Source: a virus. From it: a DNA stretch of 64,000 bases. Positions 3,857 to 38,892 of the stretch are shown here, one piece after another. Where the stretch lies: positions 33,154 to 97,153 of IMG/VR virus record IMGVR_UViG_3300026557_000002; one strand, written 5' to 3'. Each line of letters begins with the position of its first letter. Within the stretch, counting starts at the first letter, position 1. The notes below the pieces were generated by a model. That model was not told where the DNA came from. It saw nothing but the letters and a program-made list of their open reading frames with translations, and did not search any database. The position numbers and the translations under genes were made by a program.

Positions 3857-3886
3857 TTGACAAAGCGATTAGTTTTGGGATACAAT
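3857..3886 (+). promoter_or_regulatory. sigma70-like promoter
   Basis: TTGACA-N18-TACAAT. Confidence 0.55.
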
Positions 3887-4243
3887 ATTACTAAGGGCGG
3901 AGACGGCGGTCCCGGCTGGCAAAAAGGTAGAAAACTGTCTGTTGAGACTAAAAAAAAGTTAAGTGACATAAATCTCGGAGAAAATCATCCGAAATGGGGC
4001 ACGAAAGACTCTTTAGAAACAAGAAAGAAAAAGAGATTCGCTTCTTTAGGTAATAAATCAAATACGGGTAAGAAATTTTCAACTAGCCACAAAAGTAAAA
4101 TAGGCTCGGCACAACAAGCCGCTTGGGATGGTTATAGCGCCAAACAAAAACTAGAAAGAGGAAAAGCCATGTCTCTCGGTTGGGCGCGCCGTCGCGAGAG
4201 ATTAAAGAAAGGAAAATGCAAGAAGATAAGCCAAAGACAATAG
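3857..4243 (+). pseudogene. Truncated GIY-YIG/NUMOD3 homing endonuclease remnant
   Basis: GYNITKGG followed by three NUMOD3-like motifs (GRKLSVETKKKLS, GTKDSLETRKKK, GKKFSTSHKSKIG); no GIY-YIG catalytic N-terminus; AT-rich. Confidence 0.7.
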
Positions 4244-16032: not shown

Positions 16033-16914
16033 TCACGTTGCACCCAGCCTGAACCCGAGTCCTGCCCGCTGTGCCCATTCGCGGCGTGTAACCAAATCGC
16101 TGGAGGTTTTGTCATAGCGATCCGTTATATCCCCGTTTTTAGAGTGTCCGGCCCAAAACTTAACCAGACCTTCTGGGGCGCCAGCCTTCCTGAGCTGGGT
16201 AATTCGGAACCGGCGGAAAGCGTGGAACCCGACGCCGACGCCGTCAGAAGCCATCTGTCTCCGGTTCTTTTGGTAATCCCCTCGAAACATCCGGCCAGTC
16301 TTGTCTCCAAGAAGATCGATCAAGAGGCCATTCAGGTCCGCAGAAATGTCCACTTCGCGGGTACCCGCATCTGTCTTAGTCTCCCGGATGACTACCGTAG
16401 AGGTCTCAGGGTTCCAGAAGTTGCCGTTCCCGGCGTCCTGGACGGTCAGGGAGAGGGCTTCGGCTATCCTTAGCCCTGAGCCAGCCAGAAGAGCGTAAAG
16501 TGCCTTATTCTCGCCCTGCGAGGCTTTCAGGACATTCTCTACGTCCTCTGAAGTAACCACTGGCGCCGCCTGCTCTTTAGGATTGATGATCGGAAGGTCC
16601 ACGAAGTCGTTATTCCAGGTACGTGGGAAGATCTGGTTACCGGTATTCGGATCTACTGCGGAAGCCACGACCGCTTTGATGACCGATGCGATCCCGGTAA
16701 TACTCGAGGCGGACAAGCCGTCTTCGGTCAGGCCGGCGACCAGAGTCTTTAGAACCCCGTTGTCGATCTCCCCAAGGTCCTTTTCACCGATCTTTGGCAG
16801 GATATGGTTCACCAGATAAGACTGGTAGATGACCGCGGTCCTAGGCTTGATAGGCTCCCGACGACGGTTCTGGCTCTCGGTCATGAACATCTCGGCTCTG
16901 GTTTTAAAGTTCAT
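16033..16914 (-). CDS. int: Tyrosine recombinase / integrase
   Basis: Full catalytic set: GLRIAE (R), TKT (K), HAFRR (HxxR), AGH (H), DRY (Y); core-binding N-terminal domain. Confidence 0.9.
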   Translation of the reverse strand: MNFKTRAEMFMTESQNRRREPIKPRTAVIYQSYLVNHILPKIGEKDLGEIDNGVLKTLVAGLTEDGLSASSITGIASVIKAVVASAVDPNTGNQIFPRTWNNDFVDLPIINPKEQAAPVVTSEDVENVLKASQGENKALYALLAGSGLRIAEALSLTVQDAGNGNFWNPETSTVVIRETKTDAGTREVDISADLNGLLIDLLGDKTGRMFRGDYQKNRRQMASDGVGVGFHAFRRFRITQLRKAGAPEGLVKFWAGHSKNGDITDRYDKTSSDLVTRREWAQRAGLGFRLGAT

Positions 16915-23981: not shown

Positions 23982-24506
23982 TCACTTTTTATCTAGTACT
24001 TTTTCGCACCAAAGGCATACGGGGAAGGGCTCGGTCAGCATGTACTCTTCATAAACAAAAGTCTGGCAGACATAGCATTTGAGGTCAGGCGGGATTGATT
24101 TTGGATACGGAGAAACATACGGGGGTTCTGGCGGCAAATCTTTCGGCCCAATCCAGCAATGCTCTCCGCAATCATGATCTGGAGCATCCGGAGTTTTATC
24201 TGGAGTCTTCTTCGCCTCCGCCTGAGCCTTCTTCATCAACTTCTTGACTTCGTCGTTCTTGGCCTTAATATCGGCTAGCCGCTGGTAGACTAGATAAGCT
24301 GCGTCCGTTATAGTCAGGCCCGATGCGGGTTTGTTTTTGCGGATTCGTTCGAGTGCCGGGAGTCCGGGAGGAGGCGCGTACCAGGTCCAGTCAGGCGGGC
24401 CGGATGTCATGAACTTGGCGGCTTTACAGGCGTCGAGATCGCCCTGGAAGTCCTGGCTAAACTGAGCCACGAAGAGATGACTGACGGGATTGTAGTCAAT
24501 CAACAT
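23982..24506 (-). CDS. Hypothetical protein with C-terminal CxxC pair
   Basis: Likely start MLIDY overlapping the upstream stop. Confidence 0.55.
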   Translation of the reverse strand: MLIDYNPVSHLFVAQFSQDFQGDLDACKAAKFMTSGPPDWTWYAPPPGLPALERIRKNKPASGLTITDAAYLVYQRLADIKAKNDEVKKLMKKAQAEAKKTPDKTPDAPDHDCGEHCWIGPKDLPPEPPYVSPYPKSIPPDLKCYVCQTFVYEEYMLTEPFPVCLWCEKVLDKK

Positions 24507-25093
24507 CAGATCGGAGGTTCTCCGCCGTTGCTTTCGCCGGCGGCCGCGACCATCCACTTAATGTTGTGCTGCTTGATCCTGCCCGCTATGATATGCGGCC
24601 TCAAGGCGTCTCCGACCATCCGGTCCTCGAACTGATATCCCGAAACGTCAAAGTCCGCGACTATCTGCATCGCTTTCCTGGATAAAAAATATCCGAAGCC
24701 TGAACAGTGAACTGGCGGATAGTGGTCGCGAGGAAAACAAGAGCCTGCGTAATCGTACTTCGTGTAATCAAATGCTCGGAAGCGTTTCTCATCGGGGACG
24801 GTGTCGCAATCTATTTTAAACAGATATGAGTAATTATGTTCTAATGCCCAAAAGCAAATTGCTTGAACTTTTAAAGGTAGATCAAAATATTCGTCTGGCG
24901 TATCAAGACAAATCCTATCATTAAATGTGTGAACAACTTTGTGTGAGTAAGCCGCTTTCGTGCGGCTATGCGTGTAGCCTGTAAAAAATCGCGTATCCGC
25001 GACATCCGAAAAAGGCACCCACTTAATTCGGATACTATCGTGAAGACCTTGATCCCTGCGACAACTGGCGACGGCGATGAGGAGTTTTGTCAT
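24506..25093 (-). CDS. GT31-like galactosyltransferase
   Basis: DEYFDLPLKV, KIDCDT, SGFGYFLSR, EDRMVG. Confidence 0.8.
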   Translation of the reverse strand: MTKLLIAVASCRRDQGLHDSIRIKWVPFSDVADTRFFTGYTHSRTKAAYSHKVVHTFNDRICLDTPDEYFDLPLKVQAICFWALEHNYSYLFKIDCDTVPDEKRFRAFDYTKYDYAGSCFPRDHYPPVHCSGFGYFLSRKAMQIVADFDVSGYQFEDRMVGDALRPHIIAGRIKQHNIKWMVAAAGESNGGEPPI

Positions 25094-26133: not shown

Positions 26134-26344
26134 TAGAAATCTCCTCACTAGTCCACCGACGCCATCTTTGTTTGCAAAACGGGCACATCCACTCGCTCGT
26201 GCCATCGTATTCGGCGGTCTCGATGCCAATCAAATGGCTGAAAAACTCGCCTGCGAACAAATGCTTGTCTTTTTCAGGGATCTCGCCAGCGACCCAACTC
26301 TTATGACACTTAGGGCACTCTCGAGCCTGACTTGAAAATTTCAT
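26126..26344 (-). CDS. Small Zn-ribbon protein
   Basis: CPKC...[12 protein letters not shown]. Confidence 0.6.
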
Positions 26345-27297
26345 CTCTTCTCTCCGTAAAATTCGGCGTTTACCATCAGATTCACTAGACCTCTAAATTT
26401 AGTCTTGGCTTCCCAGCCAAGATTTTTCTTGGCTTTCGATGGATCCCCTAAAAGAAGATCTACCTCGGCGGGTCGAAAGTTCCCTGAATCTATCACGACG
26501 TATTTAGTCCAGTCAAGTCCCAAATAATTGAACGCCTCGCACAAAAACTCTCGTACCGAATGCGTCTCTCCTGTCGCCAATACGTAGTCATCCGGTTTGG
26601 ACTGTTGTAGCATTCTCCACATTCCTTCCACGTACTCGGGAGCATAACCCCAGTCCCGTTGGGCATCAAGATTTCCTAAAGAGAGAGTTTTTTGTTCGCC
26701 TTTAAGAATCTGAACTGCGGCCTTAACGATTTTCTTAGTTACGAAATTCTCTCCTCGACGAAAACTTTCGTGATTCATCAAAATTCCATTACAGGCGAAT
26801 ATCCCGTATGTCTCTCGATAGTTCAAGACCGTTTGATGTCCGAAATGTTTTGCTATAGCGTAAGGGCTTTGTGGATTAAACGGGGTGTTCTCGTTTTGTG
26901 GCGTTTCTTTAACCTTGCCGAACAACTCGCTTGTTCCGGCTTGATAAAATTTGCATTCTGGGACAACTTTACGGACTATTTCCAACAGGCGAAGAACTCC
27001 TAATCCGTCAATGTTGGCCGCATACTCAGGAGTATGAAAGCTGACTCCGACGTGCGACATAGCCGCAAGGTTGTAGATTTCGTCGGGTTCAACTTCTTTT
27101 ATAACGTTGTGTAGGCTGCTTGTATCCGCTAGGTCCCCGTCATAAATCTTGATTCGGTCTAAGATATGACTAATTCGTCCGAGGTTGGCACTGCTTGAAC
27201 GACGAACCATGCCGTGAACCTCGTATCCTTTTTCTAGAAGAAGCTCAGATAAATACGATCCATCTTGGCCGCCGCAACCAGTCACGAGTGCTTTCAT
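26341..27297 (-). CDS. gmd: GDP-mannose 4,6-dehydratase
   Basis: [51 protein letters not shown]. Confidence 0.97.
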
Positions 27298-28514
27298 ACT
27301 ACCTCCAATTTAGGCAAAGGAAAAACCAATCTTTGGCCCGCGTACTTCGGATTCTCTACAAAGAACTTCCTGAAGTGCCAAGGCAATACGATCAAGTAAT
27401 CTGGCTTCATAGCAAGTGCCCTACTTTCAGGGATGATTGGTATCCCGCTTCCCGGCGTGTAAGATCCGAACTTATCTGGGTTCACCTCGCCTATATACGA
27501 GATATTCTTTTCTGTCAGGCCGCAGTACTGCAACAAAACGTTTCCTTTGGTGGAGGCACCGAGCGCAGCCACGCTACATCCTTGAGATCGAACTAATTTG
27601 ATAAACTCAAGCAAGTCCTGCTTTGACTGAGCCGCCTGCAACCCGAAGTCGAAATAAGGCCGGATTGTATCTAAGCCTAGTTCTCGCTCTTTGTCAAGGA
27701 CTTTCTGGACATCAGGTGACTCGGGTCCGGTCTTGGACATCGTGACCGAGATACTACCCCCGTTGACGTCGTTGAACTCGATGCATCGAATAATGAAGCC
27801 GACGCGGTCAGCCATGAACTTGATCTGTTTCAGGGCATAAAATTCTAGGTGTTCGTGACAGACTGTGTCGTAAGAATTTGTCTCTAACATGCTAGGCATG
27901 TAACTTTGCTCAAAGACCCAGATACCATCTTCGTGAAGGACTTCGTGTATTTCGGCCATGAAGCCTGTCGGATCTTCGAGATCATAAAACATAGAAAATG
28001 ATGTGACGACTTTTGCCTTTTTTGAAAAGCATCTTCGAAGCAACGAGGCAGAAAAGAACTCGCAAATTAGCATGGTGTACTTAGAATAACAATCTTCAAA
28101 CTTGACTCCAGCCGGATCAAATCCTATTAAAGTTAAATCTGAAGGATAAGCACGTAGAGTAGTGCCGTCATTGCTGCCGATATCCACGACAAGGTCGCCC
28201 GCGTCTAGTTTGATCTGGGACAAGATTCTTCTAACCTTGTCTTGAAGGTGCCGAACCATACTAGGATTCAAACCGGAACGGTATCCGTAATTCTCGCCGT
28301 ACATCTCACCTGAGTTGTAAGAGTGTGCTAGCTGGAGCAATCCGCACACATCCTGACCTTGGCATTTGACTAGACGCAGCGGACCTCGGGTTATCTTCCC
28401 ATCCTTGATCTTGGGGAAGACGCCTGTCAGCATTTGCTCGCCCAAATCCAAGACTTGGACAAGGTTAGCATTTCCGCATATCCGGCATCTGTCGATCTTC
28501 TTAAACTTTCCCAT
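27294..28514 (-). CDS. NDP-hexose C-methyltransferase (Zn-binding, SAM and C-terminal domains)
   Basis: [46 protein letters not shown]; alternative start 28538. Confidence 0.9.
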
Positions 28515-28734
28515 AAAGTTTGGAACTTCCTTGTCCATAAGACTTCTGACCTAGCTCTTCGTCGACGGCTTGGATCAAATCGTTTCTGTGCTGGTTCGCG
28601 GTATTCGTGACGCGAGTCGCGTCCGCTATCTGCTTGTCTGTAGCCTTCGGGTCTCGCTTCCTGTCTTCGGCCATCCAGATACGGATATTCGCAATCGTTA
28701 GGGCGTCTATTAAATTTCCGATACTGACTTTCAT
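28501..28734 (-). CDS. Small helical protein (DUF4254-like, glycan-cluster associated)
   Basis: IGNLIDALTIANIRIWMAED...NQHRNDLIQAVD. Confidence 0.55.
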   Translation of the reverse strand: MKVSIGNLIDALTIANIRIWMAEDRKRDPKATDKQIADATRVTNTANQHRNDLIQAVDEELGQKSYGQGSSKLYGKV

Positions 28735-30250: not shown

Positions 30251-30878
30251 ACTGCTCCAGCTTTGCTATCACATCTTCCGGATAGCACGATTGACTTTTA
30301 ACTTTTTCAATAGTCGCAGGATTGAAATATCCTAGGTCGAGATACCAATCCTCGAATGGAGAATCCACAATATCAGGATGGCGAACAAAGATGTCCGCAC
30401 ACGCCAGAACGTATCCTTGGCTTAAAAAGAGTTCTCTTTGAGGCGCTCTGTACGTATCGCCATATTGATAGGCGTCATGCTCGATACCAATGACCCTAAA
30501 CCGATAGTTGGCGTTAAGCACGAGCTTGGCAACATCCAAGTCCAGAACATCCACGTCGAGAGATAGGAAGTCTATAGAATAAGGCATATGCGCTTTCGCG
30601 AACTCTTTGTTGTAATCGATTTTTGTCGCATCTTGGTTGAGATAAGTACAATGCTTCCTATCCGCATAGCTGTCGTTATATCGGCTTTCTAATTCGACAC
30701 AGATGCCTCTCCAGTCCAATTTCGAATCTAAGTAATGCGAGTTATTATGAAACTTAGAATCCGCCGATCCGATGTCAACGTACGTGCCGACTACTTTAAA
30801 ATGAAACAAACGGGCACAGAACTCGTCGAGCCTAGAGCCGCTATGGCAGTTGGGATAATTCGTGAAAGATCGCTTCAT
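30240..30878 (-). CDS. FkbM-like methyltransferase (paralogue)
   Basis: YVDIGS, NNSHYL...WRGICVE, IDFLSLDVD, IEHD, PFEDW. Confidence 0.8.
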   Translation of the reverse strand: MKRSFTNYPNCHSGSRLDEFCARLFHFKVVGTYVDIGSADSKFHNNSHYLDSKLDWRGICVELESRYNDSYADRKHCTYLNQDATKIDYNKEFAKAHMPYSIDFLSLDVDVLDLDVAKLVLNANYRFRVIGIEHDAYQYGDTYRAPQRELFLSQGYVLACADIFVRHPDIVDSPFEDWYLDLGYFNPATIEKVKSQSCYPEDVIAKLEQYGR

Positions 30879-31654
30879 CCAATCCTACCTTTCAGCCACT
30901 CGGTCTTTCTTTGATGAAAGTCCGCGGAGCGATGATCCCAGTTGCTACCGGACCTGTAGTGCAGAATTACTTTTTCGCCCAAGCGGAACTCGTCATAACT
31001 GAATTCCGTGAAATGGTTCTTGCGGCAAGCCAAAATATCAAGGTCTAGATGCGCCTGAAAGTAATGGTGCGTCTGACCACCTACGTCTACAGGCGTATCT
31101 TGAATTCTCCCACACCACCAATTCAAAGTCTCTGGACTAGGTAATCTAGCCATGTCGGCCAACATGAAGGTAGGCCACATGTAATGAAAGACTCTTCCGT
31201 CTTCATGCTTTTTGCCATCCGAGATGTTAACCATTACGTGCGGGTTCAAGTAGTCTGTCAGCTTGATGCCCTCGACCAAGAATACGTCTGAGTCCAAGAT
31301 ACCGATGGGGCCTTTTTCTTTCGAAATATGATTCTCCCAAGCCCAGCACAAAGCGTAAGCATGAGCGACATTAGCATTCATGTACTTCCCTTCATGATTA
31401 AGAATAGAGCAGCTCAGCTCAATTTTCTGGCAACGAGCAAGTAAATCTTCGTTCTTTTCGACATCAATCATCTGGACGCCGAGTGCTTTGGCTTGTTCGT
31501 GAAGCCCGGTATAATTTCCCCCGAAGCCGTTGTCATACCTAGCGTTGTTAAAAACAACGAATTCAAAGTCTTCCTGAAGGTGTCTCCGGAACGAGCGCAG
31601 TTGGAGGCCGATGAAATCTGGTCGGTTAGAGCCAAAAGTGAAAATCATAATCAT
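30875..31654 (-). CDS. GT-A fold nucleotide-sugar transferase
   Basis: NRPDFI..Q, LDSDVF (DxD), DVGG, HYRSGSNW. Confidence 0.65.
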   Translation of the reverse strand: MIMIFTFGSNRPDFIGLQLRSFRRHLQEDFEFVVFNNARYDNGFGGNYTGLHEQAKALGVQMIDVEKNEDLLARCQKIELSCSILNHEGKYMNANVAHAYALCWAWENHISKEKGPIGILDSDVFLVEGIKLTDYLNPHVMVNISDGKKHEDGRVFHYMWPTFMLADMARLPSPETLNWWCGRIQDTPVDVGGQTHHYFQAHLDLDILACRKNHFTEFSYDEFRLGEKVILHYRSGSNWDHRSADFHQRKTEWLKGRIG

Positions 31655-32649
31655 GAAAGAAATCCGTTGTCATATAATAGACAAGTTAAAGCATCTTTAT
31701 CCATTATTACGTCATTTGAACTAAATTCTTTTTGCAGATCTGTTCTGGTTTCAAATTGTCCTAATACGGACGAGATCACGTAATACCTGCCTCCGTCGAC
31801 TGTTCGAGAAATTTCTTCTTCACTAACGAGGATCTCGTGAATTTTCTCGCCTGGACGAACGCCGTCTATCCTGATTTCTATATCTCGTTCTCCGATCAAA
31901 CAATGCACCACATCCATCACTCGTGCTGACGGTATCTTGGGAACCCAGGTCTCGCCAGAATTCCCGAACTGGACGGTTGCAAATACGGTATCAACCGCAT
32001 GATCTAATGAAAGAAGAAAACGAGTCATATCTCTGGTTGTTACCGTGACGGGGCCCCCTCTCTTAATTTGTTCTTTAAAAAGCGGGATTACAGAACCGCG
32101 GGAAGCTAAAACGTTGCCATATCTGACACAGACAAACTTTGTCTGGGGGCAGCGCTCACCAGCGCTCAGAAAAATACGCTCTTGAATAGCTTTCGTCATG
32201 CCCATCACGTTCACGGGCGCACAAGCTTTGTCAGTGGATATCCCAACGACCGTCTCGACAACAAGGGCTTGTTCACTGATAGCGCGTACGATATTCTCGG
32301 CGCCGTTTATATTAGTCTTGACGGCCTCGTAAGGAAAATATTCGCAGGACGGGACCTGCTTCGAAGCTGCGGCATTAAATACGATATCCGCTTCTTGTAA
32401 AACACTAGCCACTGACGCATAATCCCGAATGTCCCCAATACGAAAACGAACCCGTCGCCTGAATTCCTCTCTTAGCTCGGGATCCATAGAATACTTAGCC
32501 ATCATGGCTGACTGCTTGGCCTCGTCGCGAGAAAAGACCGTAATCTTGTCTACGGTGCCGCCTTCTCCTGATAACAGCCGGCGAAGCAGCACGCTTCCCA
32601 AAGAGCCGGTTCCACCTGTTATCAAGATGCGCTTATTTTGAAAAAACAT
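31651..32649 (-). CDS. UDP-GlcNAc 4,6-dehydratase (FnlA/WbjB/PseB family)
   Basis: TGGTGSLG, FSRDEAKQ, KQVPSCE, STDKA, MGMTK, RYGNVLASRGSVIP, RPGEKIHE. Confidence 0.93.
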   Translation of the reverse strand: MFFQNKRILITGGTGSLGSVLLRRLLSGEGGTVDKITVFSRDEAKQSAMMAKYSMDPELREEFRRRVRFRIGDIRDYASVASVLQEADIVFNAAASKQVPSCEYFPYEAVKTNINGAENIVRAISEQALVVETVVGISTDKACAPVNVMGMTKAIQERIFLSAGERCPQTKFVCVRYGNVLASRGSVIPLFKEQIKRGGPVTVTTRDMTRFLLSLDHAVDTVFATVQFGNSGETWVPKIPSARVMDVVHCLIGERDIEIRIDGVRPGEKIHEILVSEEEISRTVDGGRYYVISSVLGQFETRTDLQKEFSSNDVIMDKDALTCLLYDNGFLS

Positions 32650-33451
32650 AGCCGTCTCCCTCGTCGTCTGTCTTCTTTTGCCAGTACAATAGCTCTTCCA
32701 AACCTAGCGGAGCCAATGTCGTAGCCGCCCTGAACTTAACCGCCAACAAGCTTCGGTCGCATTTCTCAGCCTCTACAGGCAAGATATTTACATCACTTTT
32801 TCCGTATGTCTTCTGGAACAATTTTAAAAGATCAAACTTTGAGATACGTTGAGAAGCCACATGGTAAAGGCCCGAGAGCCTGCTCTCTCGCTTCAAAAGG
32901 TCCCCAACAACGTCCGCAAGCCAGTTCGTGGTGACACCCGTAAAGAACGCGTTCTTGTATCCCTGAACATCTCCCGTTTGGCGCAAGAACCATTCCAGGA
33001 GTCCTTTGTAGTTATTTCGCTCTCGACCGACGATAGATGTCCTAATCGTCAACGTGTTTGGCACCTGCGTAACTTCGCCAGCCAGCTTTGTCTTGCCGTA
33101 AAGGTCTACTGGATCCGGAGTATGAGTTTCCATATAGCGCCCGAGATTGCCGGAGAATACACAGTCTGAACTGAAGTGAACTAAGTATGGGCACATGGCC
33201 TGAAGGTCATGTGGCAACTTAGCGTTGACGGCCTCAAGCAGCCTGGGGTCTTGCTCGCGTTGTTTGATGACGCCGACGCAATTCAAGACCGCATCCGGCT
33301 TAAAAAACTTGATGACCTTTTCCACGCTTGAGGAGTCCGTAGCGTCGAACGACGGCCTGGAGACGCCGATAACGGTCTCGAACTTCGGGCGCAGTCTCTC
33401 GACCATCTTGTGCCCGAGCATGCCGGTTGAGCCTAGGACGAGGACTCTCAT
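32633..33451 (-). CDS. RmlD-like NDP-4-keto-6-deoxysugar reductase
   Basis: GSTGMLG, SSDCVFSG, YGKTK, RTSIVG. Confidence 0.9.
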   Translation of the reverse strand: MRVLVLGSTGMLGHKMVERLRPKFETVIGVSRPSFDATDSSSVEKVIKFFKPDAVLNCVGVIKQREQDPRLLEAVNAKLPHDLQAMCPYLVHFSSDCVFSGNLGRYMETHTPDPVDLYGKTKLAGEVTQVPNTLTIRTSIVGRERNNYKGLLEWFLRQTGDVQGYKNAFFTGVTTNWLADVVGDLLKRESRLSGLYHVASQRISKFDLLKLFQKTYGKSDVNILPVEAEKCDRSLLAVKFRAATTLAPLGLEELLYWQKKTDDEGDGYVFSK

Positions 33452-34401
33452 CTAGACTCCTGGGTGATTCGGACGGCTTCCAAAAGACCGTTCAATTTTG
33501 TAACATACGTGTGATTTTGGGCAACTTCGTCCATCAACTTATGCAGGGTATCAATCTTGATTTTAGGGAGGGCTTCCTTGGCGTCGTAGAAAAGCTGACG
33601 TGTTTCCTCGTTGAAAATCAAATCAGGGAAAATCTTCTTGGACGCTATGTTGTTCGTAATTGGGAAGCAACCGTAACTAATATTTTTTGCAGTCCTGCAC
33701 GGAAAATAATGGACGTTATCTCGGTTGTGGTAGGTGTCCCCAATCGCGGGTGCCATATAGGACGCCTTGACGAGCCATTGATTCTCCTCAACAGAGACTG
33801 CGGTTCCGCCGCTGTACCCGCCGTAAGCGTTGAAGTTAATCCCGTTCTCAAGACAGGCTTTCTTGAAAGGGTTGTGAACATTGCCGTAGATGGTGCCGAC
33901 GAAATTGACATCCCGGCTCTCTTGGTTGAATACCTGGGCGGTCGGCTTGTTGGCCTCAATCTCGTGCGGCAGAAGATCCGTGCCCCAATACAGCACGGTA
34001 GACGAATACTTTTCGTGTCTCTGCAGAGATAGATATATATCGTGCCCGACCTTGATATCGTTGTCTACGTTAGTCGTCAGAGTATAGACGCCGTAATTCA
34101 TGAAATCGTAAGAACCGATATCACCGAAGAGCTCCTTGACTTTTTCGTCAGTATTATGGCAGACATAGAACGTGTCCTTGCGCTTCGGCATCAGTCTCAA
34201 GTCGGCCACGTTGACGGTCAAGAACAGCGAATTACTAAAATCGATATTGTCTAAGTTATCTTGGCCGTCAAGCCACAGGACCTCGCGGTCAGGGAACTTG
34301 AACTTGAGCGCGCGGTACCAGGCTTCCTGAATATGTTTGAACGTGTTGTAGCTCGATTTGAAGCCCCAGATAACGAACTTGTTTGTCTTTAAATCTATCA
34401 T
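33448..34401 (-). CDS. Putative GT-B glycosyltransferase
   Basis: WGTDLLPHEI, FVGTI, PCRTAKNISYG, HTY; cluster context. Confidence 0.55.
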   Translation of the reverse strand: MIDLKTNKFVIWGFKSSYNTFKHIQEAWYRALKFKFPDREVLWLDGQDNLDNIDFSNSLFLTVNVADLRLMPKRKDTFYVCHNTDEKVKELFGDIGSYDFMNYGVYTLTTNVDNDIKVGHDIYLSLQRHEKYSSTVLYWGTDLLPHEIEANKPTAQVFNQESRDVNFVGTIYGNVHNPFKKACLENGINFNAYGGYSGGTAVSVEENQWLVKASYMAPAIGDTYHNRDNVHYFPCRTAKNISYGCFPITNNIASKKIFPDLIFNEETRQLFYDAKEALPKIKIDTLHKLMDEVAQNHTYVTKLNGLLEAVRITQESR

Positions 34402-35174
34402 AGTCGTACCCACCTCTCAGGGCAAATGTCCCGAGCGTCTTCCGTACATGTCGGGCCGAACCAATTCTTCGGTGCGATCACAGTTCCGTAAGGATGTTTA
34501 AAATAGGCTGCCCACCAGCTGAACGAAGAATTTGCCGTAATTACATGATCGCAGAGGGACATCGCGTAAATATCCGTCGCTTCGGTACCGGGTTCTACAA
34601 CGACATCCCGACCCAAAGAAAAATCCGTGTAAAAAGTCTCGGAGACCCACTTAGGATTATCAGTGAAAAAGAAGAACTTTGGATGACTGATGCAGTCACG
34701 GATATATTGTCTGGCGGGACCATAATATCCGTAATCAAGATTCCCGTGAAAACTCTTATGCGGCTCTTGAATATAGTCCCCACGTCGAACATGAATCGCG
34801 ACCGCGTTCTCTTCGGCCAAAATCTGGCTCTCTAAATCTTTGCGGCGATTAAGAGGATTCAAATTTCTTAGTTCTTCTCGGACGTTTTCAAAATATTTCT
34901 CAGATTGCCAGTAGCCTTGTAAGACGTCTCCATCTCGAATGTTATCCACTAGCTTCTGGTTGTACGGCAAGCCGACTTCGCGAACGGTAGGCACCATTCT
35001 AGGCGACAATCTAAAGGCGTCTATATCCCACTGGCCTAGGGAGAACGGACGATTAACCGCCAACCGAGTGGCGTCGAATTGTACCTCGACACCGAGCCGC
35101 TTCGCCTGTGCCCGCCCAAAGGCGTACTGAAACATTTGATTGCCTATGCCGCCTTGCAAAATCACAGTGATCAT
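34398..35174 (-). CDS. GT11 alpha-1,2-fucosyltransferase
   Basis: GGIGNQMFQYA, GYWQSEKYF, HVRRGDY, NSSFSWWAAY. Confidence 0.95.
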   Translation of the reverse strand: MITVILQGGIGNQMFQYAFGRAQAKRLGVEVQFDATRLAVNRPFSLGQWDIDAFRLSPRMVPTVREVGLPYNQKLVDNIRDGDVLQGYWQSEKYFENVREELRNLNPLNRRKDLESQILAEENAVAIHVRRGDYIQEPHKSFHGNLDYGYYGPARQYIRDCISHPKFFFFTDNPKWVSETFYTDFSLGRDVVVEPGTEATDIYAMSLCDHVITANSSFSWWAAYFKHPYGTVIAPKNWFGPTCTEDARDICPERWVRL

Positions 35175-35833
35175 CGCGCCGTCCATGTAAGTTCAGGATG
35201 TAAAGACTTCATGACTTCAATCATCTTGCCTCGGTTCATAGTCGAGACCATGGATGTCTGCTTCCTGCGGTAAAAGAACAAAGCGTCGTTCAGGACCTGG
35301 ACTCGCCAGCCGCGTTTCAAGATTGAGACCCAGAGCTCCCAATCTTCGCAGCCTTCCGCCATCACGGATTTGTATCCGCCAGCCTCCAAGATCGCTTGCT
35401 TCCGAATCAGAGAGCACACCGGCATTCCGTTATATGCTGTAATCTGATGAAGCCCTGTATGCGTCGGGCGAAGGCGATTTGTATGCGTACCGAAGTATGT
35501 CATATCGGTCGAGACCACGCCGATCCCAGGACCCATTAGTGGCACAGTCTTCTCAAGGTAATGCGGATCGATTTTGTCATCTGCGTCTAAAGGCAGGATT
35601 AATTCGCCCGTCGAGAACTCTATTCCAGAGTTGCGCGCTGCCGCCAACCCGCCATTCACCTTATTGACGATCTTGACAGAAAATTTCTCAATCTCGCCCA
35701 GAGATCCGTCCGTTGAGCCGTCATTGACAACGATAACCTCAAGGTCTTTATACGTTTGCGCTAAAGCAGAACTGATCGCTTCCGCGACGTATTCGCGCAT
35801 ATTAAAGCACGGAATCACGATGCTGACTCTCAC
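35171..35833 (-). CDS. GT2 glycosyltransferase
   Basis: VSIVIPCFN, VNDGSTD, ARNSG, LDADD, EDWELW. Confidence 0.95.
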   Translation of the reverse strand: MRVSIVIPCFNMREYVAEAISSALAQTYKDLEVIVVNDGSTDGSLGEIEKFSVKIVNKVNGGLAAARNSGIEFSTGELILPLDADDKIDPHYLEKTVPLMGPGIGVVSTDMTYFGTHTNRLRPTHTGLHQITAYNGMPVCSLIRKQAILEAGGYKSVMAEGCEDWELWVSILKRGWRVQVLNDALFFYRRKQTSMVSTMNRGKMIEVMKSLHPELTWTAR

Positions 35834-36528
35834 CTTCCGTCCTTTTTAGTCAAGGCCAGAATCTTTGGAGTCGGATTGATGCCTGCGGCCTTCCACTTAT
35901 CTAGGTAGTGCAAGTTGGCCCCTTCTGGGTAACAATAGGATGGGTCCAAGATTTTGGCTGGCGGATGATCCAATAAATAGCGATTCAGATGAGACTCGTC
36001 ATGCCATACGGCTACGATGTAACGGTTGAGATCAAAACTAATATTTGACGCAAGTTCTTCTGACATCTTTAAAAAGGCTTTCGCGTTCCCGCCATTAAAG
36101 CCGCCGCAGAAATACTTATTATTTTTCGCCGGATTAATATAGGCACAAGATTCCACTCGCCTCTCTGGTGTGCCACTTTCGTTGATGTAACCAGGATGGA
36201 GTGTCCCGACCACACCGTCGGCAAAAACTTCCTCCCCTACTGGGGCCACGAATCTCATATCTACATCTGCATAAAAGACTTGATCATATTTCTCCAATAA
36301 TATCTTTTGTCCGAGGAAAGTATGATAGCGATAAAGCGTTTCGTTCGGATAGCCCAAGGCCCCTTTGGTTATGACGAATTTCGCGTCAAATTGACTGGCG
36401 GCTCGTAAGGTATCCGTCCAAACGACAGCGTCGTGCTCAACAAAAAATTCCTTAGCGGATTCCAGTAGCGGATTCACGTATTTGTGATATTTCTCACCCG
36501 TCGCTATCACTAAAAGAGCGGTTTTCAT
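35830..36528 (-). CDS. GT6 (ABO-type) alpha-1,3-Gal/GalNAc transferase
   Basis: IATGEKY, YADVDM, LHPGY, YFCGGFNGG, WHDESHLNRY. Confidence 0.95.
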   Translation of the reverse strand: MKTALLVIATGEKYHKYVNPLLESAKEFFVEHDAVVWTDTLRAASQFDAKFVITKGALGYPNETLYRYHTFLGQKILLEKYDQVFYADVDMRFVAPVGEEVFADGVVGTLHPGYINESGTPERRVESCAYINPAKNNKYFCGGFNGGNAKAFLKMSEELASNISFDLNRYIVAVWHDESHLNRYLLDHPPAKILDPSYCYPEGANLHYLDKWKAAGINPTPKILALTKKDGR

Positions 36529-37220
36529 CGGCTCTCCGCATACTTTCTTTTCATCCAATCATAACCGACCTTCTCGTCGTACCCTTGGCCATACCTACTT
36601 GAAGGGAAGTGGTCGGTAAATGGCTCAGGTGTCGAGTCCCCAATCATAATCTTGCCTTCGGCCGCAAGCGAGCCCATAACTTGGCCGACCCAAAGATCCT
36701 CTGCCCAGCTAGACGGATACGAAAATACGACTTCGTTCAGGGCTGCTCGGCTCAGGAAGTACCCGAAGCCTCCGCTGGCCCAGGGGTACGCACGCTGATG
36801 CATCTCCTTCTCGCCCTCGCGGTTGACGGCTTCGTACCTAAAGGTGCCTGAGGTCTTGCCGTTAAAGTGTCCGAAGTAATCGTAAGAGGTGAACGGCGAG
36901 GCAAGAAGCTTCTTGACGTTGACGAAGGTATCTGTATCACAAAGAAAAATGAAATTTACCATCTTGCCTTGGAACCACTTGCATATCTCGCGGGTCTTCT
37001 TCGGCAAGCTATTGTAATCATCGTCGCAGGCAACCCGAATCTCGTCTGACTCGAAATTGACGACTCGGGCCGAGTTTTGCTCTTGCTGGCCGACGAAGAA
37101 CTTCACCGGGATGCCGGCAGCCCTGGCGTCTTGGCCCCAGGTTGAGCGGATCAAGTTATGGTCGCCGCGGTCTTTGTGCTGGAGACAGGACTTGACAGCG
37201 ATAATCAGCCTGAGGTTCAC
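36525..37220 (-). CDS. GT31-like galactosyltransferase
   Basis: IRSTWG, DDYNSLPKKT, CDTDTFV, SGGFGYFLSR, EDLWVG. Confidence 0.85.
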   Translation of the reverse strand: MNLRLIIAVKSCLQHKDRGDHNLIRSTWGQDARAAGIPVKFFVGQQEQNSARVVNFESDEIRVACDDDYNSLPKKTREICKWFQGKMVNFIFLCDTDTFVNVKKLLASPFTSYDYFGHFNGKTSGTFRYEAVNREGEKEMHQRAYPWASGGFGYFLSRAALNEVVFSYPSSWAEDLWVGQVMGSLAAEGKIMIGDSTPEPFTDHFPSSRYGQGYDEKVGYDWMKRKYAESR

Positions 37221-38101
37221 TTGACACATCCTCCGGACAACCGCTCTTCTTCGGTCAAGATATTCCTGCCAAGGATGCGATCAAGAACTTGCCGGCCGTA
37301 CTCAAGACTTAGCTGGAAGCCGGAAGCATGAAGATGCCCGCCGCCGTTAAACACTTTCGCAATCGCCGAGACATCTACGTCGCCTTCGGAACGTAGGCTG
37401 AACTGGATCATGCCATCCGCTCTCTCAAACCAGGTCAGGCTGACATCATGCGTCTTCGCTAACTCGTTCCCGATCTCCGAACAATTCAGATACAGAGCGT
37501 TCACGACCGCCGTCTTGTATCCTTGGAAGAAGCCGACTTGGGCTTGCTTAACGGCTTCGCGGACGTAATGGTTAATATGGGCTAAGGCTCCTTCGCCTTT
37601 GTAAGCTGCGTCCTTGGCTTCCATATCATAAAGACCGTCCCATGCTTCGGCAGTTAATTCCTCCTTAGACCAACGCAGCTTCCAATTCCACAGATCCCGA
37701 TCTTCCACATATTCGACCATCCATGGCCTAGCGGGAGGGTAATGAGTATCATTAAGCCTTGGGGCATTTGTGTCACTCCCGAATAGGTGGTCCCACGTTA
37801 ATCCGGCACCAGAACGTTTCATATCAAAGATAGCGTATGATGCGCCTTCAAGGACAGCTTGTGCTGTTTTGTGGTGATCAAGTATCTTGAAAGATTTCGC
37901 CAGCGAATTCAATTTGTCATTTAGTTCGCGGGTCCTGAGACTGAAATCCAACATCAGGACATCTTTGCCTTTGACTTGGGAGAAATCAAATTCTGCCCCG
38001 TGATTGAGCGGGACTAGTTTGGCCTCGGGGTATCTCTTGCTTGCGATAAAGGCGGCACACCAGCCGTCTGGGCATGCGCCGTGGTAGTAAACGATATCCA
38101 T
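37217..38101 (-). CDS. DHH/DHHA1 phosphoesterase
   Basis: H..CPDG, LDF, LDHHKT, DRDLW, FSLRS, GGGHLHASG. Confidence 0.92.
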   Translation of the reverse strand: MDIVYYHGACPDGWCAAFIASKRYPEAKLVPLNHGAEFDFSQVKGKDVLMLDFSLRTRELNDKLNSLAKSFKILDHHKTAQAVLEGASYAIFDMKRSGAGLTWDHLFGSDTNAPRLNDTHYPPARPWMVEYVEDRDLWNWKLRWSKEELTAEAWDGLYDMEAKDAAYKGEGALAHINHYVREAVKQAQVGFFQGYKTAVVNALYLNCSEIGNELAKTHDVSLTWFERADGMIQFSLRSEGDVDVSAIAKVFNGGGHLHASGFQLSLEYGRQVLDRILGRNILTEEERLSGGCVK

Positions 38102-38892
38102 TATTTCTTCTCCTGATAATCTACGATCCCATTCGCCATGATGTACGTCTTGATCCCGCGCTTGACAAAACATGGGCGCTCTGGGAAGAGCGCGCGGTTA
38201 CGGAACTTTTTATACTCCGCGCTATCCGTTCCTTGCTGCTGATTTATGTTTGCTCCCGGGACGAAGCCGACTTTGAAGCCAGCACGGCGCATATCAACAA
38301 ACCAAGCACCATGTTCTCCCCCACCGATTTTTACATCGTCGTCCCAACGAAGTTCTTTAAAAGTCTCGCGACGGAACAGCGTATAGTTCACTGTCAGGTC
38401 TACATCGAAGACCTCAAGGAATGAACTCTCTTTGACACGTTCGTCAATCTTGGCATCATGTTCTGCTATGATGCCTTTATTCTCTGACAAGAACGTCTCG
38501 TAAGGTCGATTGTCTACTCGCCCCGAGACAGCATAATACCTAGGGTGCTTTTCAAGAATTGCCAGCATCTTCTCGATTCCCACGCGAACGCTCGGATCAG
38601 CGAAATCGAAATCATCACTAGCCACAAGAAGGTACGGCGTATCCAAGGCGTCGATGATCGCATTACTCATGGCTCCAAATCCGGCGTCGAAATTTAATTT
38701 CAAAAATTTCCAATCATTGTAGGCTACATAACCTGCGAAATTGATATTTTTTGTAAAAGTTTCATGACCGCAATCGGCTACAATAACCTTAACATCCGAT
38801 CCCCAACTCACTATGTCGCCGAGAGTCTTCAGTAACTTTTCGTCGCGGAGAAACGTCTTGATTCCGATGCTGATTTTAGATAGATCTAACAT
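38101..38892 (-). CDS. GT2-like glycosyltransferase
   Basis: IKTFLRD, IVADCG, FDAGFG, SDDFDF, GGGEH. Confidence 0.8.
   Translation of the reverse strand: MLDLSKISIGIKTFLRDEKLLKTLGDIVSWGSDVKVIVADCGHETFTKNINFAGYVAYNDWKFLKLNFDAGFGAMSNAIIDALDTPYLLVASDDFDFADPSVRVGIEKMLAILEKHPRYYAVSGRVDNRPYETFLSENKGIIAEHDAKIDERVKESSFLEVFDVDLTVNYTLFRRETFKELRWDDDVKIGGGEHGAWFVDMRRAGFKVGFVPGANINQQQGTDSAEYKKFRNRALFPERPCFVKRGIKTYIMANGIVDYQEKK

Follow-up and report, generated by a model that had tools for sequence, protein, structure and literature searches.

A translationally coupled glycosyltransferase cassette in an uncultivated tailed bacteriophage and its predicted blood-group-A-like product

Can a bacteriophage assemble a terminal sugar of the kind that defines the ABO/H blood groups and, if so, on which carrier would it be placed? 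The question is raised by a run of glycosyltransferase (GT) genes in the IMG/VR virus record IMGVR_UViG_3300026557_000002, of which we analyzed bases 33154-97153 (64,000 nucleotides; hereafter the window, to whose positions all coordinates refer). The record has 97,153 bp in total, with a completeness of 92% according to CheckV, and its source is an uncultivated ~97-kb tailed bacteriophage. The original prediction, made from the letters of the window, was that genes of families GT31, GT6, GT2 and GT11, together with gmd, supply the enzymes for an A-like trisaccharide, possibly for glycan mimicry or shielding. We found the four genes to form a glycosyltransferase cassette with translational coupling, which makes up the conserved core of an otherwise variable, ~14-kb glycan-building island. 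On the basis of their sequences, we are inclined to believe that this cassette makes a blood-group-A-like sugar cap, on a carrier that the cassette itself does not encode.

The four-gene cassette and its GT6-GT11 pair

The gene families, their motifs, the operon structure and the linkage of GT6 with GT11 can be read directly from the DNA. Four consecutive minus-strand open reading frames (ORFs) occupy positions 34398-37229, all of them above the curated Pfam cut-offs and transcribed in the order GT31, GT6, GT2, GT11, so that the claim of four consecutive genes of these families was borne out. The sugars named below are galactose (Gal), glucose (Glc), fucose (Fuc), N-acetylgalactosamine (GalNAc) and N-acetylglucosamine (GlcNAc).

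36525-37229, minus strand: GT31-like glycosyltransferase (beta-1,3-Gal/GlcNAc/GalNAc-transferase family), first gene of the run (PF01762, PF02434, AlphaFold2 (AF2) model searched with Foldseek)
35830-36528, minus strand: GT6 retaining alpha-1,3-GalNAc/Gal-transferase of the minimal DxD phage/environmental clade (PF03414, motifs, tree)
35171-35833, minus strand: GT2 glycosyltransferase, soluble, 220 residues, DADD motif (PF00535)
34398-35186, minus strand: GT11 alpha-1,2-fucosyltransferase-type enzyme (PF01531, motifs)

The junctions read cgATGAaa between GT31 and GT6, agGTGAga between GT6 and GT2 and, provided that GT11 starts at its second ATG, cgATGAtc between GT2 and GT11; translation of GT11 probably begins at this second ATG, whose overlap with the GT2 stop has the form ATGA. 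Overlaps of 4 nt in the form of ATGA or GTGA at all three junctions are typical of translational coupling. Position 37220, at which the run had originally been taken to end, is the GTG start of the 231-residue database gene call for the GT31-like protein.

Collinearity with the window, from the helicase gene through the island, was seen in six contigs (L002-L006 and L082). All of them keep GT31, GT6 and GT11, and all except L082 keep GT2; the order of GT2 and GT11 is swapped in L003-L005. Among the four proteins, conservation is highest in GT6, with 53-74% identity across these lineage relatives, the other three ranging over 36-80%. The downstream part of the island (an unclassified GT-B-fold enzyme, RmlD-like and PseB-like enzymes, unknown proteins, a C-methyltransferase and gmd) is variable: it is whole in L002, partial in L003, L004 and L082 and absent from L005 and L006, in which the transferase block runs nearly straight into the lysis gene. 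Since the four-gene block is kept while the downstream part varies, we regard the block as the conserved core of the island. One of these contigs, L082 (CABMCB010000059.1, 99,937 bp), is filed under the metagenome-assembled genome (MAG) "uncultured archaeon isolate LFW-28". It is collinear with the window's phage from the helicase to gmd, at protein identities of 25-61%. Its DNA is almost certainly not archaeal but the genome of a phage from this lineage that was binned with an archaeal MAG.

The GT31-like protein matched PF01762 (1e-10, 42 bits against a cut-off of 23) and the Fringe profile PF02434 (2.6e-6, 27 bits), and nearly all of its 313 homologs carry PF01762; a PHROGs search gave no match. 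Its AF2 model (predicted local distance difference test score, pLDDT, 94.8) had human B3GalT5 as the best Foldseek match (TM-score 0.70, E-value 8e-12), followed by B3GNT2, B3GalT6, C1GalT1, chondroitin synthases and Manic Fringe, and the top matches, at least 30 of them, were all GT31 enzymes. Its DTD and EDLWVG motifs align to DSD and EDVFVG of B3GalT5. With the profile, the DxD and E-D-x-x-x-G motifs and the GT-A fold all in place, the protein is a member of CAZy family GT31. The GT2 protein, whose translation contains the DADD motif and no transmembrane segment, matched PF00535 (7.7e-31, 107.7 bits against a cut-off of 23.3), its NCBIfam matches (TuaG, EpsD, EpsE) all being sub-threshold. 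The GT11 protein matched PF01531 (1.6e-27, 97 bits against a cut-off of 23.9) and its translation carries GGIGNQMFQYAF and HVRRGDY; both the guanosine diphosphate (GDP)-fucose motif H-x-R-R-G-D-Y and the N-terminal motif G-N-Q-M-F-Q-Y are present, which places it in GT11. It is 35% identical to cyanophage GT11 genes, and a sequence search found no relative of it among solved structures.

The GT6 ORF (35830-36558) matched PF03414 (7.6e-30, 104 bits against a cut-off of 25) and NCBIfam Gltr_6 (1e-48); its start is most likely the ATG at 36528, giving 232 residues, and it carries the motifs DVD, HPG, C-G-G, WHDES and A-L-T-K. Among solved structures, phmmer ranked BoGT6a of Bacteroides ovatus, which is metal-independent, best (4.8e-37), with the human A-type transferase (GTA) at about 9e-24. 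In these alignments DVD falls on NAN of BoGT6a and on DVD of the human ABO transferase, and residues D88 and D90 are invariant across 28 aligned sequences. The original statement that this GT6 has DVD and not NxN was therefore correct, while the implication that this is unusual was not: DxD is the rule in the phage/environmental clade and is found in GT6 of 80/80 viral and 73/78 cellular loci. HPG aligns with HPG of BoGT6a (His122/Gly124) and of GTA (His233/Gly235). VWHDES, which contains the catalytic Glu (Glu192 in BoGT6a, Glu303 in GTA), aligns with IWHDES of BoGT6a, and T-L-Y-R, which provides the donor-binding Thr/Arg, with T-L-K-R; WHDES is present in all 80 viral loci, and the Thr and Tyr substrate determinants are conserved. 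The protein ends 4 residues past the conserved Lys, its maximum 19-residue hydropathy is 0.88, and its sequence holds neither a C-terminal basic-hydrophobic-basic membrane domain nor an N-terminal anchor. With its DxD motif and catalytic domain only, it belongs to the minimal DxD prokaryotic/phage clade, one of three clades distinguished within GT6 (PMC3516806). PaGT6 of the same clade transfers GalNAc to H trisaccharide or 2'-fucosyllactose, not to N-acetyllactosamine, and does so only with Mn2+ or Mg2+ (PMC3516806). By analogy with this assay, and given its DxD motif, the phage enzyme would likewise depend on Mn2+ or Mg2+.

GT6 enzymes with fucosylated acceptors, namely GTA, the human B-type transferase (GTB) and BoGT6a, differ from alpha-1,3-galactosyltransferase (alpha3GalT) in having His and not Gln at site A1, Gly or Ser and not Trp at A2, and Ala or Ile and not Trp at A7, three residues before the conserved C-terminal Lys (PMC3516806). 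The phage GT6 has His at A1, Gly at A2 and, by motif register to the conserved Lys and not by structure, Ala at A7; its A-L-T-K follows the Ala343...Lys346 pattern of GTA, whereas alpha3GalT has Trp356 there. At all three sites it would thus be of the fucosylated-acceptor type, as GTA and BoGT6a are, and not of the alpha3GalT type. The donor triad is A-G-G in BoGT6a and L-G-G in GTA, which both use GalNAc, as against M-G-A in GTB and H-A-A in alpha3GalT, which use Gal; an alpha3GalT mutant with A-G-G-L gains GalNAc activity (PMC3516806). The phage segment kyfcggfngg aligns with yyyagglsgg of BoGT6a and fyylggffgg of the human A-type enzyme, its C-G-G corresponding to human residues 266-268. 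The proposed GTA-like alignment of YFCGGFNGG, with Gly at the 268-equivalent, was thus upheld by phmmer against the structures, and the Gly-Gly of the triad would favour uridine diphosphate (UDP)-GalNAc as donor. Both DxD and CGG are kept by 120/120 nearest homologs.

In a tree of 159 GT6 sequences, from which vertebrate and NxN-type sequences were left out, the window GT6 groups with the five viral contigs L002-L006 (Shimodaira-Hasegawa-like approximate likelihood ratio test, 96) inside a mostly viral group of 24, separate from a P-SSM2 group (51 rows) and a Chlamydiota/Dependentiae group (61 rows). Across the clade the donor triad is AGG, CGG, AAA or QGC and A2 is Gly, Tyr or Trp. Tandem or nearby duplicate GT6 genes occur in L007, L008, L045, L069, L077, L091 and L100. 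This variation and these duplicates suggest a diversification of specificity.

The pairing of GT6 with GT11 extends well beyond this lineage. We searched the ORFs of 80 of the 282 viral contigs found to carry a GT6 relative with the island proteins and collapsed these loci at 90% GT6 identity to 64 non-redundant ones. In 47 of the 64 loci a GT11 gene is found no more than 10 kb from GT6, and in 21 the two are direct neighbours. By comparison, gmd is found in 27, GT2 (the commonest transferase family) in 22 and GT31 in 7 of the 64, and in the 50,697 deposited phage records GT11 is present in only 103 (~0.2%, nearly all marine cyanophages) and GT6 in 72. Although shared ancestry inflates these counts, the linkage persists in three clades and at GT6 identities as low as 33%, and it recurs in 26 of the 78 cellular loci, mostly Chlamydiota/Dependentiae MAGs. 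If the enzymes act in the order H, then A, tight GT6-GT11 linkage is to be expected, and the pairing supports this logic. Full-text literature searches found no paper discussing the phage GT6-GT11 pairing or its product.

The predicted glycan, its carrier and the alternatives

From these data we infer which sugars and linkages are made, in what order and on what carrier, as follows. The GT31-like enzyme, the GT2 enzyme or both would add a beta-linked galactose to a primer, and GT11 would then use GDP-fucose to attach an alpha-1,2-fucose, which yields an H-type disaccharide. The DxD-type, Mn2+/Mg2+-dependent GT6 would add alpha-1,3-GalNAc to the same galactose, giving an A-like terminal trisaccharide. 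GDP-fucose would be supplied by the phage Gmd together with a host GDP-fucose synthase, and the glycan would be built in the cytoplasm or at the cytoplasmic face of the membrane. Four genes bear on the sugar-nucleotide supply:

26341-27297, minus strand: GDP-mannose 4,6-dehydratase Gmd (TIGR01472, 443 bits against a cut-off of 415; PF16363, 1e-128)
27294-28538, minus strand: NDP-hexose C-methyltransferase (PF08484, 3.2e-43; PF08421, 2.8e-14)
31651-32649, minus strand: PseB/FnlA-like UDP-GlcNAc 4,6-dehydratase (PF02719, 2.7e-88)
32633-33451, minus strand: RmlD-like NDP-4-keto-6-deoxyhexose reductase (PF04321, 3.8e-32; TIGR01214, 103 bits, below cut-off)

The placement of gmd in the same island proved right, the gene lying 7 kb from the four-gene run and scoring above the TIGR01472 cut-off; its product catalyzes the first step to GDP-fucose or other GDP-6-deoxyhexoses. 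The PseB/FnlA-like protein scored 296 bits with TIGR03589 (PseB) and 254 bits with the FnlA model, both below their cut-offs. As the RmlD-like enzyme travels with the PseB-like one (in L002, L041, L066 and L082), the pair more likely forms a route to UDP-2-acetamido-2,6-dideoxyhexose.

Several points weigh against an A-like product made in this way. On the donor side, fcl is absent, the genome encoding only three short-chain dehydrogenase/reductase enzymes (Gmd, the PseB/FnlA-like and the RmlD-like protein), and the Fcl model NF047922 run over the genome gave only 17.5 bits, on the RmlD-like protein. The C-methyltransferase gene overlaps gmd by 4 nt, and the Gmd product may feed a different sugar. 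The window phage would thus need a host Fcl for fucose, or the Gmd product would be diverted to a C-methyl-6-deoxyhexose; as support for a GDP-fucose supply, for which it had been adduced, gmd is insufficient on its own. On the enzyme side, B3GNT2 is nearly as good a structural match to the GT31-like protein as B3GalT5, sequence does not tell which sugar and linkage the GT31 and GT2 enzymes make, and both families span Gal, GlcNAc, GalNAc and Glc transferases. We know of no characterized GT6 with Cys at the 266-equivalent. As to the carrier, the island shares its strand with the replication genes and stands apart from the virion genes, and ordinary O-antigen glycosyltransferases are also soluble, so that a lack of transmembrane segments does not exclude a lipid-linked host carrier. 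Apart from these points, neither this kind of enzyme nor the pairing is new: the minimal DxD GT6 clade (P-SSM2, marine metagenomes and PaGT6 of Parachlamydia acanthamoebae) was published in 2010-2012 (Brew et al. 2010; Thiyagarajan et al. 2012, PMC3516806), and cultured cyanophages already carry GT11 and GT6 together (P-SSM2, B23, ACG-2014f, Bellamy).

One could argue from the donor side that the families are correctly assigned and that the product is nevertheless not A/H-like, either because GT11 moves another GDP-6-deoxyhexose (for example a C-methylated one) or because GT6 moves Gal or uses a non-fucosylated acceptor. The missing fcl would fit such a product, as would the translational coupling of gmd to the C-methyltransferase gene, a pair also present in L002 and L007, which suggests a GDP-linked C-methyl-6-deoxyhexose pathway and a swapping of donor pathways among related phages. 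The uncharacterized Cys in the triad points the same way, and so does the drift in specificity seen in the clade at A2 (Tyr, Trp) and in the triad (AAA, QGC). On the other hand, some related phages encode a fucose supply of their own: gmd is followed by an Fcl-like gene in L082, which has the same island order (303 bits), and in the P-SSM2-type locus L063 (464 bits), in both cases as best match, under the 500-bit cut-off and beside the same GT set. To our knowledge, every characterized GT11 is a GDP-L-fucose alpha-1,2-fucosyltransferase. The GT6, moreover, has the full GTA/BoGT6a-type determinant set. We therefore consider a product of another kind improbable. The GalNAc donor and A-like product of the original prediction thus gain from the GTA/BoGT6a-type determinants, from the GT6-GT11 linkage and from the precedent of PaGT6, and lose the support sought in gmd, which stands alone without fcl. 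The mimicry or shielding of the original prediction, like display on virions, is conjectural; the phage comes from an environmental metagenome and has no link to a vertebrate.

As for the carrier, none of the island enzymes has a transmembrane segment, and no ORF in the whole 97-kb genome has three or more hydrophobic/transmembrane segments. As no polytopic protein is encoded, an initiating polyprenyl-phosphate transferase, a flippase, a polymerase, a ligase and a Gtr-type protein are all missing from the phage. For this reason we rejected an autonomous O-antigen cluster and a Gtr-type seroconversion module. With soluble enzymes and no lipid-carrier machinery, the glycan would be built on the cytoplasmic side, on a carrier outside the cassette. 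A polytopic protein within 10 kb of GT6 was seen in 0/80 viral and 22/78 cellular loci, a weak contrast, as phages rarely encode such proteins. Between a lipid-linked surface glycan of the host and a phage structural protein we lean slightly towards the latter, and hence towards virion glycosylation: the set has a self-contained, de novo look, and its core is found in phages of very different kinds.

Remodelling of the host surface is the most serious competitor of virion glycosylation, and we regard it as possible, albeit rather unlikely. Here, the soluble transferases would act on undecaprenyl-linked O-antigen, lipooligosaccharide (LOS) or exopolysaccharide intermediates of the host, which the host would then export. 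In the E. coli O86 O-antigen cluster, the GT2, GT11 and GT6 enzymes are likewise soluble. In cellular genomes the same GT6 clade is often near polytopic membrane proteins, and a tyrosine-recombinase-like gene is present at 16033-16914 (PF00589, 29.7 bits). Host-surface remodelling is also the usual reading of cyanophage "LPS/cell-wall" (lipopolysaccharide) clusters with GT11 and GT6 (P-SSM2; PMC12801897). The consequence, which we likewise hold to be possible and somewhat doubtful, would be a change of receptors, with superinfection exclusion and less progeny lost on debris, or, if the phage is temperate, a conversion of the serotype. Yet the membrane machinery (initiating transferase, flippase, polymerase, ligase, Gtr-type protein) is not encoded by the phage, the same GT6-GT11 core recurs in very different phages with presumably different hosts and host glycans, and about nine transferases with three sugar-nucleotide pathways look like de novo synthesis and not like the tweaking of an existing glycan. 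A more specific form of virion glycosylation, in which the soluble cassette would cap capsid or tail proteins with GalNAc-alpha1,3(Fuc-alpha1,2)Gal, is speculative and, in our view, unlikely as stated. It draws on a GT6, GT11 and GT-B module common to giant viruses and to protist-dwelling Chlamydiota/Dependentiae, which would hint at a shared role towards lectins or grazers and not towards the bacterial host.

It is, lastly, highly improbable that the transferases glycosylate the phage DNA at hypermodified bases, as in T-even phages. Such glycosylation does occur in phages, and T4 beta-glucosyltransferase appears far down the Foldseek list of the GT-B protein of the island. However, a thymidylate-synthase-like hydroxymethylase is absent from the genome, which encodes several DNA methyltransferases; GT6, GT11 and GT31 act on sugar acceptors, and a supply of fucose or another 6-deoxy sugar would have no precedent there. 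We rejected this candidate for want of a hydroxymethylase gene in the genome.

Other genes of the island and of the phage

Further genes with a possible link to glycan synthesis lie around the cassette or beyond it:

33448-34413, minus strand: unclassified GT-B-fold glycosyltransferase (u321), overlapping the GT11 gene (AF2/Foldseek, co-occurrence)
37217-38173, minus strand: DHH/DHHA1 phosphoesterase upstream of the GT31 gene, wedged between glycosyltransferase genes (PF02272, 1.2e-6)
38101-38892, minus strand: possible further glycosyltransferase (u263) at the upstream island edge (weak TIGR04440, 39 bits against a cut-off of 70)
24506-25093, minus strand: second GT31 paralog, beyond the lysis gene and outside the main island (30% identical to the GT31-like protein, E-value 1e-19)

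The protein u321 had no match in Pfam, PHROG or NCBIfam; its AF2 model, a confident one (pLDDT 91.4), has a GT-B glycosyltransferase fold and resembled the GT-B enzymes SenB, Gtf3 and others (TM-score about 0.5). It recurs beside DxD GT6/GT11 in phages and in Chlamydiota, Dependentiae and Verrucomicrobiota MAGs (L088, L096, L121, L134, L138 and others). Orthologs of the DHH/DHHA1 protein, 51-53% identical, occupy the same position in L002, L005 and L006, and one guess is that it removes nucleotide by-products. The u263 gene is conserved in L002-L006 and L009. A 259-residue protein encoded at 30875-31654 matched no family and accompanies the GT6 module in several phages; among ESM-Atlas clusters, its closest language-model neighbours, to be taken as a lead only, are hypothetical proteins, mostly of Nucleocytoviricota. 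For the nine unknown island proteins, PHROGs gave no match.

Elsewhere, the genome encodes a phage-type helicase, a primase-polymerase, several DNA methyltransferases and a muramidase-like, lysis-type protein with a transmembrane segment. Among the 50,697 deposited phages there was no relative at the DNA level and no close one at the protein level, and searches with the helicase and a large virion protein revealed no cultured relative. As psbA was not found in the genome, there is no sign of a cyanophage. The large plus-strand proteins have no Pfam match, and no transferase was found among them; between very large plus-strand proteins lies an ORF with the homing-endonuclease-type DNA-binding motif NUMOD3 (3857-4243). 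The tyrosine recombinase-like gene mentioned above (phage integrase family, PF00589 cut-off 27.1 bits) could reflect a temperate lifestyle or an Xer-like resolvase, which bears on whether the island might act from a prophage. A scan for promoters and terminators gave a result no better than that for shuffled sequence.

If the cassette does make an A-like cap, many environmental phages would make an H/A-type sugar cap, given the 282 viral contigs with this GT6 clade, most with GT11 beside it. Such phages would then offer a large natural supply of A-synthase and alpha-1,2-fucosyltransferase pairs that are small, soluble and metal-dependent. The vertebrate ABO family has been proposed to descend from the prokaryotic DxD GT6 clade, and the natural acceptor of this clade bears on the origin of the chemistry. 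Furthermore, the compact four-gene block, conserved in one phage lineage, could be expressed to ask whether particles or the host surface are glycosylated.

Comparison with known systems

The cassette is part of a known DxD GT6 clade and of a known kind of phage glycan cluster, to which it adds a GT31 enzyme, a phage lineage without cultured relatives and clean GTA-like determinants. Like the window GT6, the P-SSM2/PaGT6 enzymes have ~230 residues, a catalytic domain only, DxD, WHDES and no C-terminal membrane-binding domain. The window GT6 is 39% identical to that of Prochlorococcus phage P-SSM2 and 42-46% identical to those of Parachlamydiaceae, with which it has HPG and A-L-x-K in common. 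It differs in forming a separate, well-supported viral sub-clade apart from P-SSM2 and Chlamydiota/Dependentiae, in its triad (C-G-G as against A-G-G) and, relative to P-SSM2, in having Gly and not Tyr at A2.

At the level of gene clusters, P-SSM2 carries GT2, GT1, GT11, GT6, an epimerase and GT25 in one cluster (PCMG_00264-00275), and in Synechococcus phage B23 GT11 is immediately upstream of GT6. In the LPS/cell-surface clusters of cyanomyoviruses, as in the window, GT11 and GT6 are co-oriented with GT2 and sugar-nucleotide enzymes. The window phage, in contrast, is ~97 kb in size, has neither a cultured relative nor psbA, and adds GT31, the GT-B enzyme, the PseB/RmlD-type pathway and Gmd with the C-methyltransferase.

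Among bacteria, the blood-group-B-like cluster of E. coli O86 encodes WbnJ (GT2), WbnK (GT11) and WbnI (GT6). In O86 and in the A-like systems of Helicobacter mustelae and Bacteroides ovatus, the logic is that proposed for the window: a GT2 or GT31 enzyme for beta-Gal, then GT11 for Fuc, then GT6 for Gal(NAc). However, GT6 enzymes of the O86/BoGT6a type have NxN, are metal-independent and possess a C-terminal membrane-association domain, and O86-type clusters also contain wzx/wzy and a gene for an initiating transferase, all of which are missing from the phage.

Virion glycosylation has its own precedents, from which the window departs in that its island lies outside the structural operon, its transferase families differ and its virion acceptor is only proposed. 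In the mycobacteriophages Che8, Corndog and Myrna (Freeman et al. 2023) and for the capsid glycans of chlorovirus PBCV-1, as would be the case here, soluble virus-encoded transferases and methylated 6-deoxy sugars operate with no membrane export, and PBCV-1 encodes Gmd, as does the window phage.

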